From NCBI GenBank assembly GCA_964593805.1, contig CAZQHP010000001.1, positions 581,283 through 645,282 on the forward strand: a stretch of 64,000 nucleotides of DNA, written 5' to 3'. The DNA comes from an uncultured Candidatus Saccharibacteria bacterium (GTDB taxonomy: Bacteria > Patescibacteriota > Saccharimonadia > Saccharimonadales > JBBQAJ01). The translations under genes were made by a program, and so were the position numbers. Below are positions 24,110 to 36,859 of the stretch, in pieces (positions within the stretch are counted from its first letter, which is position 1; each line of letters starts with the position of its first letter). The notes under the pieces are model-generated. The model had not been told where the DNA came from. It saw nothing but the letters and a program-made list of their open reading frames with translations, and ran no database searches.

Positions 24110-24997
24110 TCATTTCTTTTTCCCGGTCTTTTTTGTTTTGGATTTGTAGGTTTTGCGGGCGGCGCGGCGTTTTTTGGCTGGTTTGGGGTGCGGTTCTACC
24201 GGCGTCTCGGAAGTACCCGCCTCCATCAGCGCCGAAACGCCGGCCAGGTCGTCTTCTACGGTCTTTTTGGGGATAAAGTAAGCCCGGCGCTTTATGGTTG
24301 CCGGCAATTCGCCCACTACGGAAAGTTCGTCGTTCACAATCGCGCCGTCGCGCATAAAAACCACGCGGGTGGCATAGCGGGTAAGTTCCGGGTTGTGCGT
24401 AACCATCATAATCGTGCTGCCGGACTGGTGGATTTCGCTCAGAAGTTCCATGACCAGCCGCGAAGAAGCGCTGTCTAGGTTGCCGGTCGGTTCGTCGGCG
24501 ATGATGATGCTTGGGTTATTGACCAGCGCGCGGGCAATTGCCACGCGCTGGGCCTGGCCGCCGCTGAGCTGATGCGGGTAGAAATACTCTCTGTCGGCCA
24601 GCCCAACCCGCTCCAGCACATAGCCGGCTTGTTTGAGCCGCCGGGTGCGCAGCACGCCTTTGTAGGCCAGGGGCAAAGCCACGTTTTCCAGCACTGAAGC
24701 GTTTGGTAGCAAGTTGAAAGACTGGAACACAAAGCCTATGGTGTCCCGCCGAGACCGTGCCCGCTGAGCGTGGCGCAGCCGCGAAACATGCCGGTCGCCC
24801 AACTTATACGTGCCGTGCGTAGGCCGGTCTAGCAAGCCAATCATATTCATGAGAGTTGATTTGCCGGAACCGCTGGGCCCCATGACCGCCACGAATTCGC
24901 CCGGCTCCACGGTCAAAGTAACTTCGTCCAGCGCCACGGTGGTGGCGTCGCCGAAGCCGTACAGTTTACTAACGTCTTGTAATTCAATAACTGGCAT
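24110..24997 (-). CDS. ABC transporter ATP-binding protein (MacB/LolD-like) with Lys-rich C-terminal tail
   Basis: Walker A GPSGSGKST, signature LSGGQAQRV, Walker B IIIADEPTGNLD; tail ...PKPAKKRRAARKTYKSKTKKTGKKK. ATG 24997 (MPVIELQDVSK) preferred. Confidence 0.9.
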   Translation of the reverse strand: MPVIELQDVSKLYGFGDATTVALDEVTLTVEPGEFVAVMGPSGSGKSTLMNMIGLLDRPTHGTYKLGDRHVSRLRHAQRARSRRDTIGFVFQSFNLLPNASVLENVALPLAYKGVLRTRRLKQAGYVLERVGLADREYFYPHQLSGGQAQRVAIARALVNNPSIIIADEPTGNLDSASSRLVMELLSEIHQSGSTIMMVTHNPELTRYATRVVFMRDGAIVNDELSVVGELPATIKRRAYFIPKKTVEDDLAGVSALMEAGTSETPVEPHPKPAKKRRAARKTYKSKTKKTGKKK

Positions 24998-25134
24998 ATG
25001 CGTCCATGTAGTGTACCCCGCGGGCATCATCCGGTTCAAGGAGTTATTTGTGAATTTTAAAAATATGGTCCTGCGCCAACAGCTTATTATTTTCACAATT
25101 TGCTTTTTTGAATTTGAAGTTTATAATATAAATT

Positions 25135-25641
25135 ATGAAAAAAGGCAAGGTGCCGGTTATAGTAGTTTCGTCCGACGACAGGTCGGGCTCGATTGAATTA
25201 CAGAAAATGATTCGACTGGCGAGTGAAGCGATTGCTCCTATTTTTGATTATTTTCAGCCCGACGCACAGGAATTTCACGCTGGCGTGTTTGATGGGGCTA
25301 GCGCTGGCATGACGCATAACCAGAGGGCTTGCATTGCCTCCGGAAGAATTATGCTTGAAGAAACTGTTGGGAGAATCAAGACGGTTGCTGTGGATAAAGC
25401 ACTGCGGGGCGCCAATCTGGGTTCAATCATCGTATCTGCATTAGAGGGCGTGGCTTCCGAAAGAGGCATATCTGATTTGGTTGTCGTTGAGCCGCTGCCA
25501 GGCGCCGTGGGCTTTTTTGAAGCGCTCGGCTACACCCCCCAATATTCTAGTAGCGGCAACCGGGTTGACCGCATGACAAAAACGCTTGACGCTTCAGCTG
25601 TGCCATTGCACGCGGTAAAATTAAGCGGCCAGTCAACCTAG
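25135..25641 (+). CDS. GNAT family N-acetyltransferase
   Basis: VAVDKALRGANLGSIIVSALE (acetyl-CoA loop R-x-x-G-x-G/A-like) and FFEALGY. Confidence 0.7.
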   Translation: MKKGKVPVIVVSSDDRSGSIELQKMIRLASEAIAPIFDYFQPDAQEFHAGVFDGASAGMTHNQRACIASGRIMLEETVGRIKTVAVDKALRGANLGSIIVSALEGVASERGISDLVVVEPLPGAVGFFEALGYTPQYSSSGNRVDRMTKTLDASAVPLHAVKLSGQST

Positions 25642-25673
25642 TCCAGCCTGAAGTGCTAGAATTAATTGGTCGT

Positions 25674-25709
25674 GGAGAGGTGGCCGAGTGGCTTAAGGCG
25701 CAGTCTTGG
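25674..25709 (+). pseudogene. Orphan 5' half of a tRNA-Ser, truncated inside the anticodon loop
   Basis: GGAGAGGTGGCCGAGTGGCTTAAGGCGCAGTCTTGG matches the first 36 nt of the intact tRNA-Ser (26011) at 28/36 positions. No complementary anticodon stem, T-arm or acceptor follows. Confidence 0.6.
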
Positions 25710-25764
25710 CCACCGCCTAAAGGCGGGGTCCCGCCATAGGCGGGAAAAGGCGTATATTGTAAAT

Positions 25765-26010
25765 ATGTTTTACGTTTATGTTATCCAGAGCATTCCGAAA
25801 GGCCGTTATTATATAGGCAGTACGAAAAAGGTAGACGCGCGGCTTAAAAGTCATAATAGTGGTGCGAACAGATCAACAAAGCCATATCGTCCATGGAGAA
25901 TTGTGCACACCGAAGAATTGCCGGATAAAACATCGGCGCTTATTCGTGAGCTGCAGATAAAATCCTATAAAGGTGGTCGTGCGTTTAAAGCATTGATACA
26001 ATCTTCATAG
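25765..26010 (+). CDS. GIY-YIG nuclease superfamily protein (YhbQ/UPF0213-like, URI domain)
   Basis: 81 aa; FYVYVIQS...GRYYIGST..V.ARLKSHNSG...YRPWRIVHTEE...ALIRELQIK. ATG is 6 nt after TATATT. The upstream part of the track ORF is tRNA-fragment read-through. Confidence 0.85.
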   Translation: MFYVYVIQSIPKGRYYIGSTKKVDARLKSHNSGANRSTKPYRPWRIVHTEELPDKTSALIRELQIKSYKGGRAFKALIQSS

Positions 26011-26102
26011 GGAAGAGTGTCCGAGTGGCTGAAGGAGCACGCTTGGAAAGCGTGTATGCGTCGCAAGACGTATCGCGGGTTCGAATCCCGCCTCTTCCGC
26101 CA
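26011..26102 (+). tRNA. tRNA-Ser (anticodon GGA), class II, CCA encoded
   Basis: Acceptor GGAAGAG/CTCTTCC, D-arm, anticodon arm CACGC-TTGGAAA-GCGTG, long variable arm, T-arm GCGGGTTCGAATCCCGC. Confidence 0.9.
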
Positions 26103-26133
26103 GATGTGGTTCTTTCGAACTCAACAGAGGTAG

Positions 26134-26157
26134 GGACCTGGTCAATCGACCAGGTCC
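26134..26157 (+). terminator. 10-bp GC hairpin downstream of tRNA-Ser (possible terminator)
   Basis: GGACCTGGTC-AATC-GACCAGGTCC followed by TCTTCGTT. The T tract is weak. Confidence 0.4.
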
Positions 26158-26645
26158 TCTTCGTTGGTAGGCGGAGCTGGTACTTCCTCCATGATCGTGG
26201 TTCCTCGTTTACATACCCATTGACGCGCCGAAGGCGCGCTACTTCAACCCACTAGGCCGCTTGTCCAAGCGGCGAGGCCGGTGCTGACCGGAGGTAGATG
26301 TCGGAGATCGTGTTGTCGATTCCACGGCATCCCCTACAACTACACCTACCCGCCATCACCAGGTCAGTCCATCTTCTCCAGCGCGGTCGCTGCTGACATT
26401 CTCAGTCAGACCTCGAACAGCCCACTCCTATCGGGCATCAACATCCAGCAGAGCTCGTGTGGGGAACCGCCATCGGACGTCTCGATTGCCGAGAGTGGGG
26501 CTGCTGACATCGGGCCCGATCGCTTCTACGTCGGTCTGCGCGGCCAATGGTACCGGTACTACGGCGAGAGCACGTACCGCACCTGGACGATCTCGAGCCC
26601 CGCGCTTCGTGGGAGTCAGTTCCACCAGCCGGCTGAACGGTTGTG

Positions 26646-26678
26646 GCGGGTTCGAAAGGTGGAGCAGGCTCTCCGCCA
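26646..26678 (+). repeat. Degenerate direct repeat of the tRNA-Ser 3' end
   Basis: GCGGGTTCGAA is an exact 11-mer shared with the tRNA T-arm. Then CTC-TCCGCCAG versus CTCTTCCGCCAG. The T-stem 3' strand is replaced. Confidence 0.55.
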
Positions 26679-26745
26679 GGTGCTCACCATTCGATCTTGA
26701 GCCTCATGGTCGAAAGATGACAAGTCATTTCCTGGAACAAGCCGC

Positions 26746-28161
26746 CTAACCAGCTTTTGGGCCGTCGGAGCCGTGGGAATAGGCCAGCAGGCCGTTGCCG
26801 TTTCTAGCCCAGACATCCAGAACTGGCTGGACTATTTTCCAGCCGGCTAGCACTTCGTCCGCCGTGGCAAACAGCGTGTGGTCGCCCTTGACGGCGTCTA
26901 CCAAAACTCGTTCGTAGGCATCCGGATGACCGTGGTTATCAAAAGTCTTTTCGTAGTCAAAGTCCATCAGCGCTGTTTCTGTAACTTGCGTAAAACCTGG
27001 TTTTTTGACTTTCAGGCGCAGTTCAATGCCCTCATTAGGCTGGATTCTAAAAGTCAGCCGGTTGTATTCGCCGTTATTATCCGCCCTAAATTGCAGGGTT
27101 ATGTCGGTACGTTTTTGAGCCAGCGCCTTGCCGGTAATCAGCTTCATGGGCACTTTACTCCAGCGCTGGTTATCTATATATAGGTCTAGCGCCGCGTAAG
27201 TTTCCGTGGTTGAGTTAGCTTTGCCCACTTGTTTTTTGTAGCCTTTATACTGGCCACGTACGGCTCGTTCGGAAATCTTATTTGGCGGCACCGGTTTGAT
27301 TTGGCTAAACAAAAGCTGTTTGTTTTTGTGTATTTGGCCGCTTTCCAATTTTGCCGGCAGTTCCATTGTCACCAACGCCAAAAGCTGCAGCAGATGGCTC
27401 TGTATCAGGTCGCGCAGGGCGCCAGTTTGTTCGTAAAAGTTCACGCGATTTTCTATGCCGATTTTTTCGGTGGCTTTTATCATGATTGAATCCACGTTCT
27501 GATGGTTCCAGATAGGTATAAAAATCGGGTTGGCGTAGCGGAACTGCAAAATATCTTGGACCGTTTCTTTGGCCAGATAGTGGTCTATTCGGAAAATCTG
27601 GTCTTCCGTGAAATGCTGGCCGGTTTCTTCCACCAGCAGCCGCGCCGATGCCAAATCATAACCGAACGGCTTTTCAACCAGCAGCCGGGTGCTGGCCACG
27701 CCGTGCTGGCAGCTGGCGTTCATGCCACTTTCGCCCATAAAGCGTACAATCGGACCAAATACCTGCGGCGGGATAGACAGGTAGTACAGCCGGTTCATGC
27801 ATACGCCCTGGGTGTCTTCCAGTTTGTTGAGTCGCGCGAGCAGTTTGTCGTACTCTTTGGGATTAGTAACATCCATATGGTGCATTTGCAAAGACTCGCC
27901 CATCTTGAGCACCGCGGCAGGGTCGCAGATATTATCTATTTCATTTACACACAATTCCACGTCATCCAGCAGTTGTTTTTTGGTTATATTTTGGCGGCTA
28001 ACACCTAAAATCAAGGTTTTAGGGTGCAGCAAATTGTCTTTTAGGAGATGGTATAGGGCAGGCAGCAGCTTGCGCTGAGCCAGGTCTCCCGTAATTCCAA
28101 AGATAACGATTATAGCCGGTTCCATTGCCGGCGATTTTTTGGCAGTTTTTGCGCCCGTCAT
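26746..28161 (-). CDS. zwf: Glucose-6-phosphate 1-dehydrogenase
   Basis: FGITGDLAQRKLLPALY, EKPFG, RIDHYLAKE motifs; 471 aa. Confidence 0.95.
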   Translation of the reverse strand: MTGAKTAKKSPAMEPAIIVIFGITGDLAQRKLLPALYHLLKDNLLHPKTLILGVSRQNITKKQLLDDVELCVNEIDNICDPAAVLKMGESLQMHHMDVTNPKEYDKLLARLNKLEDTQGVCMNRLYYLSIPPQVFGPIVRFMGESGMNASCQHGVASTRLLVEKPFGYDLASARLLVEETGQHFTEDQIFRIDHYLAKETVQDILQFRYANPIFIPIWNHQNVDSIMIKATEKIGIENRVNFYEQTGALRDLIQSHLLQLLALVTMELPAKLESGQIHKNKQLLFSQIKPVPPNKISERAVRGQYKGYKKQVGKANSTTETYAALDLYIDNQRWSKVPMKLITGKALAQKRTDITLQFRADNNGEYNRLTFRIQPNEGIELRLKVKKPGFTQVTETALMDFDYEKTFDNHGHPDAYERVLVDAVKGDHTLFATADEVLAGWKIVQPVLDVWARNGNGLLAYSHGSDGPKAG

Positions 28162-35950: not shown

Positions 35951-36859
35951 ATGAAAAATCGTTACCGTAAAAAGTCTGACGCTGCACATCGCTACAGCGA
36001 TGTGAGTGCTAGGTATTCATCTACAGAGATACTTGTAGCATTGCATGCGGACAAGCTACCTCCTCCAGTAGCTATTGATAGGCTTGAAAGAACAGATAGA
36101 AGTGGTTTAGTTGCAGCGGCTGAACTATCTGTCGAGCAAGCAGTTACGGCTACTTCATTTGAAAAAGCGGATCCTTGGATAAGCCGAGCTAAAACAATGT
36201 ACGAAAAAGTCGCTCGCACCGATGCTACACAAAGTGGTTGTGATGAATTTTCAGCAAAATCACTTTTTGCACTTTCACAACTACCTTTGGTTGCTTATTT
36301 GGCCTTATTTGGCAAACTACCTCCCCCGGCTTTGATTAAGCCAGTATTTAAATCCTCGGTAGAGGTTGCTGCGAAAATAAATATCGCAACTAGCCGAGAT
36401 ACTAACCCAGACTACAGACATAGGAAGGGCTGCGCTGGTGTACTTGCAGAGGCCGGAGTAATATTGTTGGGTCAACGATACGCCATAAACGACATTGGTG
36501 ATGGCTCTTGGTTACCTATTCATTCTCTACATAGCGAAGATAATAAAAACCGACAACATCACTCTGGCGAAAACCGTTCTTGGGATGTTACTTTTTTTAC
36601 ACAATTAGGTGAGGAACCGCAAAAAGACTACCTAGTGCAGGTAAAAAACAAGGAAGGTGGGGCGACTCATAAGTACGCCGACGGAGATGCAGACGGTATC
36701 ACGAGAGTTCATTTTCACCCCCAATTGACATTTAGATCTGAGCGTGGCCATGGTCTTTCAAATACAGTTCACGAATTTGTGTCCGAAGCACAGGGTGATA
36801 CTGCTGCTTCGCGCGCCTTAGATGAACGAACTGGTATGTTACTCGAAATCTTGGGTTGA
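35951..36859 (+). CDS. Hypothetical protein, weak PD-(D/E)xK-like motif
   Basis: 302 aa; ...VLAEAGV...RSWDVTFFTQL...DYLVQVKNKEG. ATG is 6 nt after TGTTAGTAT. Confidence 0.5.
   Translation: MKNRYRKKSDAAHRYSDVSARYSSTEILVALHADKLPPPVAIDRLERTDRSGLVAAAELSVEQAVTATSFEKADPWISRAKTMYEKVARTDATQSGCDEFSAKSLFALSQLPLVAYLALFGKLPPPALIKPVFKSSVEVAAKINIATSRDTNPDYRHRKGCAGVLAEAGVILLGQRYAINDIGDGSWLPIHSLHSEDNKNRQHHSGENRSWDVTFFTQLGEEPQKDYLVQVKNKEGGATHKYADGDADGITRVHFHPQLTFRSERGHGLSNTVHEFVSEAQGDTAASRALDERTGMLLEILG

Follow-up and report, generated by a model that had tools for sequence, protein, structure and literature searches.

The window, as the whole stretch of 64,000 nucleotides (nt) analyzed here is called, belongs to a contig from Saccharimonadales, a lineage of the candidate phyla radiation (CPR), and the element in question is a GC-rich segment of 643 nt (positions 26103-26745) that separates an intact tRNA-Ser(GGA) gene from zwf. 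The best reading of this segment is that it is the debris of nuclease-driven breakage and repair of a tRNA gene, and not necessarily the scar of an integrase island; the chance that this is right is put at about even. The 643 nt would then be filler without function, made of two modules and lodged within a broken older copy of tRNA-Ser(GGA), a description held with equal measures of confidence and doubt. As the agent, an integrase element is less likely than a tRNA-associated cassette built around a small GIY-YIG nuclease gene. The original prediction of a foreign insertion that is bounded by a tRNA and by a copy of its 3' end, and that came from a high-GC donor, was largely right. The segment itself is probably junk, and its interest lies in the recurrent cassette and in a scrap of DNA that is possibly derived from the bacterial host on which such cells live.

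The tRNA sequences around the segment carry much of the evidence. Immediately to its left is the intact tRNA-Ser(GGA) (26011-26102, plus strand), the working copy, which is recognized by ARAGORN and by Rfam (55.9 bits). Near the right end of the segment lies a displaced tRNA-Ser 3' end (26646-26679, plus strand), which consists of GCGGGTTCGAA, from the T stem and T loop, a 12-nt filler, AGGTGGAGCAGG, and CTCTCCGCCAG, which comprises the acceptor strand and CCA. The window contains GCGGGTTCGAA at two places, 26075 and 26646, where 0.03 occurrences are expected, and it contains CTCTCCGCCAG once, 12 nt beyond the second copy of GCGGGTTCGAA; taken together, the two are far beyond chance, and the claim that the tRNA 3' end recurs at 26646 holds. 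This copy had been called decayed. The repeat is real and its T stem is destroyed (ARAGORN calls the intact gene alone), but the decay amounts to one replacement, in which the 12 nt of AGGTGGAGCAGG stand in place of the 6 nt TCCCGC of the T arm, flanked on one side by the exact 11-mer and on the other by an 11-mer that is one base short of the intact 12-mer. Such a lesion looks like one discrete event and does not look like diffuse mutational decay. No significant template for the 12-nt filler was found elsewhere in the window.

A further piece of the same tRNA, missed in the original prediction, lies upstream of the intact gene. It is a 5' fragment (25674-25709, plus strand) that corresponds to positions 1-36 of tRNA-Ser(GGA), ends after the anticodon-loop sequence TTGG, and agrees with the intact tRNA at 30 of 36 positions overall (83% identity over 30 aligned nt). 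The D stem is GCC/GGC in the fragment and TCC/GGA in the intact gene, a compensatory difference; the acceptor strand is GGAGAGG, as it is in the closest relative (L003, below), against GGAAGAG; and the anticodon stem reads CAGTC against CACGC. Because of the compensatory differences, the fragment is taken to derive from another, once functional allele rather than from a decayed copy of the present gene. The displaced 3' end, CTCTCC-G-CCA, pairs with GGAGAG of the 5' fragment at 6 of 7 positions and with GGAAGAG of the intact tRNA at 3 of 7, and the tRNA of L003 combines GGAGAGG with TCTCTCCGCCA. The simplest reading is that the 5' and 3' fragments would be the two ends of one older gene. It is held loosely, because a single T deletion in CTCTTCC gives the same 3' string.

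Comparison with the closest relative found (L003; FtsX 79%, ABC 85% and zwf 69% identical) indicates what has been added. There, the order is ABC ATPase, 82 nt, tRNA-Ser(GGA), 1 nt, and the zwf stop codon, and the GNAT gene, the GIY-YIG gene and the spacer are all absent from the junction; relative to it, the window has gained the GNAT gene, the 5' tRNA fragment, the GIY-YIG gene and the 643-nt segment. Because the tRNA-Ser(GGA) of L003 is only 1 nt from zwf, the segment is an insertion, and on this point the original prediction stands. The conserved right-hand boundary is zwf itself (26746-28161, minus strand; Pfam G6PD_N and G6PD_C), which encodes glucose-6-phosphate dehydrogenase. The GNAT acetyltransferase gene (25135-25641), located between the ABC ATPase gene and the 5' tRNA fragment, may belong to the same variable region, since it is missing at the L003 junction.

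The composition of the segment first drew attention to it. The counts of G+C per 60-nt line that had been made by hand, 34 and 35 (26281-26400) and 40 and 39 (26461-26580) against 25 (25801-25860) and 27 (27001-27060) in the comparison lines, are all exact, and the GC content is 59.4% in the segment versus 50.5% in the window. The highest-GC stretch of 643 nt in the 64 kb begins at 26221 (0.61). This is a weak sign of foreign origin when taken alone, because the segment lies only about 2.5 standard deviations over the mean (its GC is matched by 0.7% of all stretches of 643 nt) and a resident (host) gene, that of the ABC ATPase (24.1-25.1 kb), likewise attains a GC of 0.60-0.62. Over its full extent (24110-25096) the latter gene has a GC of 0.57-0.62, with 0.69 at the third codon position, and its orthologue in L003, 85% identical, sits in a genome of 37% GC, pointing to a strong and recent divergence in GC and to heterogeneous GC within the window.

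The codon-position signal is stronger and is that of a former coding sequence. The open frame (26224-26700, 158 codons) is unremarkable by itself (p about 0.08). In 26326-26610, 73 of 95 codons end in G or C, as had been claimed, and the GC by codon position is 0.53/0.57/0.77, of which the second-position value of 0.57 falls outside the range of the host open reading frames (ORFs; 0.32-0.52). The three-base periodicity has a best-phase count of 75 versus 65.2 ± 2.4 in shuffles (p about 0.001, with the choice of the best sub-window allowed for), and a chi-square test gives p = 0.001; the coding-type skew is thus reproduced.

A part of this frame (26329-26562, plus strand) derives from the interior of a foreign protein-coding gene. 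The open frame had no match in a word-indexed protein search, and its one solid match, a protein of 754 amino acids (aa) termed P0017, surfaced only in an exhaustive HMMER search of 1.84 billion representative proteins (phmmer, E = 2.2e-14). By BLASTP, 40 of 78 residues (51%) are identical between window positions 26329-26562 and residues 329-405 of P0017, and the fragment also matches P0025 (32%). In P0017, the N terminus resembles a signal peptide, the N-terminal region is propeller-like and is common to P0024, P0025 and P0028, and the C-terminal part is a GDSL lipase domain (residues 440-753). Of all this, the window contains just the end of the N-terminal region and lacks the GDSL domain and everything else. 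Because only an inner part of P0017 is represented, the piece is an internal gene fragment. It has the marks of a pseudogene fragment as well: the domain similarity is partial, there is no start, and the other domains of the P0017 family are gone. About 235-300 nt of the segment thus appear to come from the central part of a gene that encoded a large, secreted propeller/GDSL-esterase protein. The second and third HMMER hits, P0018 and P0019, are proteins with Ig repeats and Calx-beta repeats that match in seven stretches each and were set aside as repeat and composition noise. The sole locus from a metagenome scan with a three-sequence alignment (L021) was rejected, as its match contains stop codons and falls in no real ORF.

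The homologous part of the P0017 gene has a GC by codon position of 0.58/0.55/0.68, resembling the segment and unlike the host, and the contig that carries it (L008) has 62% GC, which bears out the claim of a former coding sequence from a higher-GC genome. Its neighborhood is island-like, with HTH, PIN and DUF4041 genes, and at the DNA level the DUF4041 gene matches solely plasmids of Kocuria, Curtobacterium and Streptomyces. On the contig of P0025 (L022), the best IS630 matches are to Pseudonocardia and Streptomyces, together with Sinorhizobium and other phyla, and are weak as taxonomic evidence. No match was obtained by tblastn of P0017 against plasmids or by BLASTN of the rest of L008 against plasmids and phages; the segment itself was equally unmatched in BLASTN searches of phage and plasmid collections, as was the frame in a scan of viral contigs. 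The source organism, with about 60-62% GC, was probably an actinobacterium. The earlier guess at a donor among Actinobacteria or their phages thereby gains modest support, and no more, for an actinobacterial type.

The fragment could instead be a vertical relic, that is, a Saccharimonadales gene of the P0017 family that stood between tRNA-Ser and zwf and decayed in place, its GC richness being due to amino acid composition and to the heterogeneous GC of the genome. The frame is still open over 158 codons, and host genes do reach a GC of 0.60-0.62 and a third-position value of 0.69. Nevertheless, the second-position GC of 0.57 is beyond the host range, the distance from tRNA to zwf in L003 is 1 nt, and the fragment sits between two tRNA pieces instead of beside a single tRNA. 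Furthermore, no member of the P0017 family with a stated link to Saccharibacteria was found, and the only close homologue, P0017, and also P0025 are on contigs of actinobacterial affinity (among the relatives, these are the two contigs that were examined). A relic of this kind is therefore considered improbable.

The other module of the segment (26103-26328, 226 nt, plus strand) is an array of short GC hairpins and differs in kind from the coding part. Three perfect stems lie exactly where they had been predicted, at 26134-26157 (10 bp), 26224-26238 (6 bp) and 26256-26273 (7 bp), and their 23 stem nt compare with 1.3 ± 2.9 in shuffles, none of the 500 shuffles having as many; the module has a fold z-score of -2.3. 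Rfam gave no match in the segment, whether gathering thresholds were applied to the entire window or E values up to 10 were allowed over 25400-27000, and no homologue of the module was found. In a sister-sample contig (L007), an uncharacterized ORF of 60 codons is called that starts 14 nt into the intact tRNA and runs into this module.

The segment is unlikely to have a function. Conceivably it encodes a small protein of 139 aa from GTG 26281, or acts as a structured RNA or as a terminator array for the transcript of the tRNA and the GIY-YIG gene, and three observations would fit such a role: the open frame has three-base periodicity, the hairpin module is significantly structured, and the hairpin at 26134-26157, located 31 nt past the tRNA, could be the terminator of the latter. 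On the protein side, however, there is no in-frame ATG, and the GAGG that precedes GTG 26281 is just 3 nt away from it, in agreement with the earlier remark that no convincing start or ribosome-binding site is present; moreover, such a protein would represent an inner portion of a propeller domain and would lack a signal peptide, and no gene is called here in the ENA k139 or the Logan assembly. On the RNA side, Rfam families are unmatched and a scan yielded no terminator-like site. Since the segment is not kept in L003 or in the more distant genome L004 either, a functional segment is judged very unlikely.

The reading of the segment as repair debris depends on its neighbor on the other side of the intact tRNA, a stand-alone GIY-YIG nuclease gene of 81 codons (25765-26010, plus strand; PF01541, E = 1.6e-16), whose stop codon touches base 1 of the tRNA. 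The original prediction had used this gene merely as a comparison line for GC; it belongs to a recurring layout around tRNA genes. The catalytic residues Y5, Y16, R26, H30, N31 and E62 are invariant among 16 homologues. Between the 5' tRNA fragment and the gene, at the old anticodon-loop break, there is a twin GC hairpin (25710-25752, plus strand) of the form CCACCGCC-TAAA-GGCGGGG plus TCCCGCC-ATA-GGCGGG, followed by AAAAGGCG. It is conserved in six copies at four loci, with compensatory changes in three base pairs and free variation in the loops, and has a fold z-score of -2.9. Elsewhere, copies of this element (CCACCGCC-loop-GGCGGGG, TCCCGCC-loop-GGCGGG, AAAAGG) lie in disabled tRNAs, after anticodon-loop position 35 or in the D loop; they were seen in L004 (2695-2740 and 2933-2978), L019 (135-170 and 205-255) and L010 (1405-1470). 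A weak GIY-YIG-like tblastn match near tRNA-Leu in the window (36479-36673) had no Pfam or NCBIfam support and was dropped.

The GIY-YIG loci surveyed were that of the window (25765-26010) and those of L004, L005/L006, L009, L010-L013, L014-L018, L019, L020, L023 and L024. Among eight distinct homologues from genomes and metagenomes, seven have an intact tRNA at a distance of at most 105 nt, and the eighth is on a contig of 605 nt among tRNA fragments. Of the three loci from viral contigs, L024 overlaps an intact tRNA-Arg, L023 lies between tRNA-Ser-like repeats, and L025 shows no tRNA. Homologous genes are located between an intact tRNA and its partial copy for tRNA-Ser(GCT), Ser(CGA), Tyr, Pro and Gln, which makes six other tRNA species associated with a GIY-YIG gene when the tRNA-Arg overlap is counted. 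The gene is patchy in distribution, being absent in the closer relative L003 and present at the same tRNA in the more distant L004. In general, genes for GIY-YIG proteins of 79-96 aa adjoin a tRNA almost always, usually between two full or partial tRNA copies, and the last bases of the ORF are often the first bases of the tRNA as well.

The full layout, consisting of a tRNA piece, the twin hairpin, the GIY-YIG gene, the intact tRNA, a spacer and a tRNA 3' end, recurs in other CPR genomes. The case nearest to the window is L004, a Candidatus Saccharibacteria genome with the same ABC-FtsX neighbors. Its first copy of tRNA-Ser(GGA) is disabled and bears two inserts, a twin hairpin of 35 nt behind TTGG and 86 nt within the T loop; this copy is followed by a 5' fragment (1-36, 100% identical), the same twin hairpin and the GIY-YIG gene, and then by an intact tRNA-Ser(GGA), a 150-nt hairpin-rich spacer, and an exact 21-nt tRNA 3' end that begins in the T loop. 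The segment of the window has no homology with the analogous spacers and inserts of L004, so that the architecture appears to be conserved between the two and the filler does not. A stretch of 450 nt upstream of these copies (L004 2204-2658), between the ABC gene and the first disabled tRNA-Ser, is GC-rich and non-coding and contains a long-range hairpin of ACAGGACTTACGCAAAATGGTGCA with TGTGCCGTTTTGCGTAAGTCCTAT; it could be a structured RNA.

Damage to the disabled copies is itself stereotyped, in that all those that retain the T region are broken within GTTCGAATC. In L004, 86 nt are inserted; in L006, 22 nt are inserted between TTC and GAA; in L009, the T arm is replaced; and in the window, 12 nt stand for 6 nt. 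The event in L009, from Uhrbacteria, was a tandem duplication of the tRNA together with its flank, with the nuclease gene in between: the duplicated unit (222-300 and 689-760) is composed of tRNA-Tyr, a terminator and about 50 nt of flank with CCACTAA repeats. In L023 (IMG/VR UViG_3300037608_000191), a viral contig of 70% GC, a perfect direct repeat of 127 nt (1-127 and 393-519) represents a tRNA-Ser-like 3' part with GC hairpin inserts and flanks a GIY-YIG homologue that is 44% identical to that of the window. Because L023 is on a contig of 70% GC, this type of cassette is not confined to CPR bacteria.

The following course of events would account for the locus. Originally, a single tRNA-Ser(GGA) would have stood directly against the end of zwf, as it still does in L003. 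The GIY-YIG nuclease, we infer, makes double-strand breaks in the DNA of tRNA genes, at the T-loop motif GTTCGAATC and in the anticodon loop, by analogy with SegB (see below). Partial gene duplications would arise as the breaks are mended, through either recombination of tRNA copies with one another or end joining, and whatever DNA is available would be patched in; selection would preserve one intact copy while the other bears the scars. The nuclease gene probably rides on the tRNA transcript, because the stretch from the old 5' fragment to the intact tRNA is too short to hold both the gene and a promoter for it. The foreign gene scrap may have been caught during such a repair or may have come with a replacement tRNA.

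The closest parallel is SegB of phages T4 and T6, a free-standing GIY-YIG homing endonuclease encoded among tRNA genes (PMC2330249). SegB cuts inside tRNA genes, with the preferred motif RAWTSGAAC in T6, and drives the recombination-dependent amplification of a unit formed by a tRNA and segB (PMC13096335). The reverse complement of this motif, GTTCSAWTY, corresponds in our own reading to the T-loop sequence, that is, to the place where the disabled copies break. The two systems therefore have in common the GIY-YIG domain, the tight association with tRNA genes, a motif that is the reverse complement of the T loop, and duplications of tRNA plus nuclease. They differ in that SegB has about 220 aa and the protein of the window about 80 aa with no DNA-binding domain, and in that SegB is phage-borne, whereas the gene of the window is chromosomal in a CPR bacterium, and is accompanied by a twin GC hairpin and by one disabled tRNA copy.

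The capture of the gene scrap has another precedent, namely the filler DNA found at repaired double-strand breaks and the homology-facilitated illegitimate recombination of naturally competent bacteria. In both cases the DNA that becomes attached at the break, beside a conserved anchor sequence, is a short stretch from inside an unrelated gene and has no promoter; for the window, such a capture event is a conjecture.

The closest published work that was found concerns group I introns at position 35/36 of tRNA genes of Patescibacteria, in which HNH-type endonucleases are described (PMC13011429). The older copy in the window is also broken at 35/36, in the same phylum and beside a homing-type nuclease gene, and differs in having no catalytic core and no contiguous 3' exon, in that the nuclease is GIY-YIG and not HNH, and in that a separate intact tRNA functions. 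An intron in the tRNA gene was accordingly discarded: Rfam, including Intron_gpI, gave no match to a catalytic core in 25400-27000 with E up to 10; the gap from the 5' fragment to the ORF is only about 55 nt, and that from the ORF to the tRNA 0 nt; and the exons do not add up to one tRNA, since positions 37-64 of the older copy are missing.

A different origin, closer to the original prediction, is an integrase-type islet, in which an element with a copy of the tRNA-Ser 3' end integrated at the T loop and later lost its integrase and most of its cargo by deletion, so that 0.54 kb of debris and the displaced 3' end were left, the GIY-YIG gene and the 5' fragment being an unrelated second event. 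The window does resemble the tRNA islands of tyrosine integrases, as an intact tRNA stands at one end, a 3' copy in the same orientation, starting in the T arm, at the other, with foreign DNA in between that is absent in a relative, L003. The island-like neighborhood of P0017 (HTH, PIN and DUF4041) fits with such an element. The window departs from these islands in the lack of an integrase, the extra 5' tRNA fragment, the interruption of the repeat in the T arm, a cargo that is a one-gene scrap, and the presence of a nuclease gene where the integrase would be expected. Among the genes called within about 5 kb there is no recombinase Pfam family, as had been noted before, and the GIY-YIG ORF is the only one that adjoins the tRNA. 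Furthermore, an integrase leaves unexplained both the 5' fragments upstream of GIY-YIG genes and the T-loop insertions without a duplicated 3' end (the first copy of L004, L006 and L009); the repeat lesion of the window is a discrete swap of 12 nt for 6 nt between two 11-mers; the cargo is an internal gene piece with no element-like genes; and phage, plasmid and viral collections gave no match. Hence, from the claim of a classic scar, the foreign insertion, the tRNA and the 3' repeat are retained, and the integrase type is not specifically supported, because an integrase event yields no 5' tRNA fragment, which had been overlooked together with the recurring GIY-YIG layout. An islet of this type is possible, if doubtful.

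Several points weigh against repair debris as the preferred reading and should be kept in mind. The GIY-YIG protein consists of a catalytic domain of about 80 aa with no DNA-binding domain, and cleavage by this family is proposed by analogy. The anticodon loop and the T loop are reportedly the classic crossover sites of tRNA-targeting integrases, and in L004 the perfect 21-nt repeat, which runs from the T loop to the CCA end and flanks the 150-nt spacer, is att-like and speaks for an integrase islet. The empty site is seen in L003, a relative of less than 90% identity. The supposed older tRNA lacks positions 37-64, and CTCTCC could match the 5' fragment by chance, through the loss of one base from CTCTTCC. 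As for the foreign piece, it has one real homologue only, at 51% identity, and its actinobacterial assignment depends on one mobile neighbor gene, the IS630 matches of L022 being mixed. Finally, the spacers of the window and of L004 share no sequence, which leaves a common origin of the layout unproven.

With these reservations, the recurrence of the layout invites a broader and more speculative proposal, which we advance as a tentative possibility: the small GIY-YIG genes and the twin GC hairpin might form an undescribed class of mobile cassette in tRNA genes of CPR bacteria and of at least one lineage with 70% GC, which survives by sparing one of the duplicated tRNAs, and whose breaks capture DNA from the actinobacterial host of the epibiont. 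Full-text literature searches found no description of GIY-YIG genes with tRNA fragments in CPR bacteria or Patescibacteria. Many known hosts of Saccharibacteria are Actinobacteria, and at least one member of the Saccharibacteria is naturally competent. Saccharibacteria live attached to host bacteria (PMC9040727). If the proposal is true, the segment would be a physical record of DNA flow from host to Saccharibacteria and a possible marker of the host in metagenome-assembled genomes; likewise, if the gene scrap comes from an actinobacterial host, it would provide a sequence-based link of uncultured Saccharibacteria to their hosts. Should the nuclease indeed cut the DNA of tRNA genes, a homing-type element would occupy an essential RNA gene with no intron, by means of duplication and one disabled copy. 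The ultra-small CPR bacteria remodel tRNA genes that are essential and present in single copy, and they do so in a stereotyped pattern centered on a minimal GIY-YIG nuclease gene. The layout also accounts for odd tRNA fragments and broken contigs in CPR assemblies; many of the GIY-YIG genes are on contigs of about 0.6 kb, which suggests that the repeats break assemblies.

It is barely credible that the segment is a chimera, in which the assembly joined reads from a high-GC organism into the Saccharimonadales contig. The data are metagenomic, and the GC shifts across the segment, from about 0.55 just past 26103 to a peak of about 0.64 near 26500-26700. However, the sequence is identical in the 776-kb ENA contig (k139) and in the Logan contig, which also agree in zwf and its surroundings, and position 26103 is crossed by the k119 contig from the sister sample (L007, 544 nt), which covers 25666-26209 and therefore spans the left edge of the segment; the three assemblies are concordant base for base. 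In addition, tRNA-derived sequence bounds the segment on both sides, with the host zwf next to it. In a species-level genome collection the sole relative was a Candidatus Saccharimonadales metagenome-assembled genome, and one GIY-YIG homologue (P0003) carries the name Candidatus Saccharibacteria.

The locus is unannotated in its source: between zwf and the GNAT gene (window 25642-26745, equivalent to L001 6417-7520), the 776-kb contig has zero annotated genes. In the sister-sample contig L007, the GIY-YIG gene is called as an ORF of 112 aa that starts from an upstream TTG and reads through the tRNA fragment and the hairpins.

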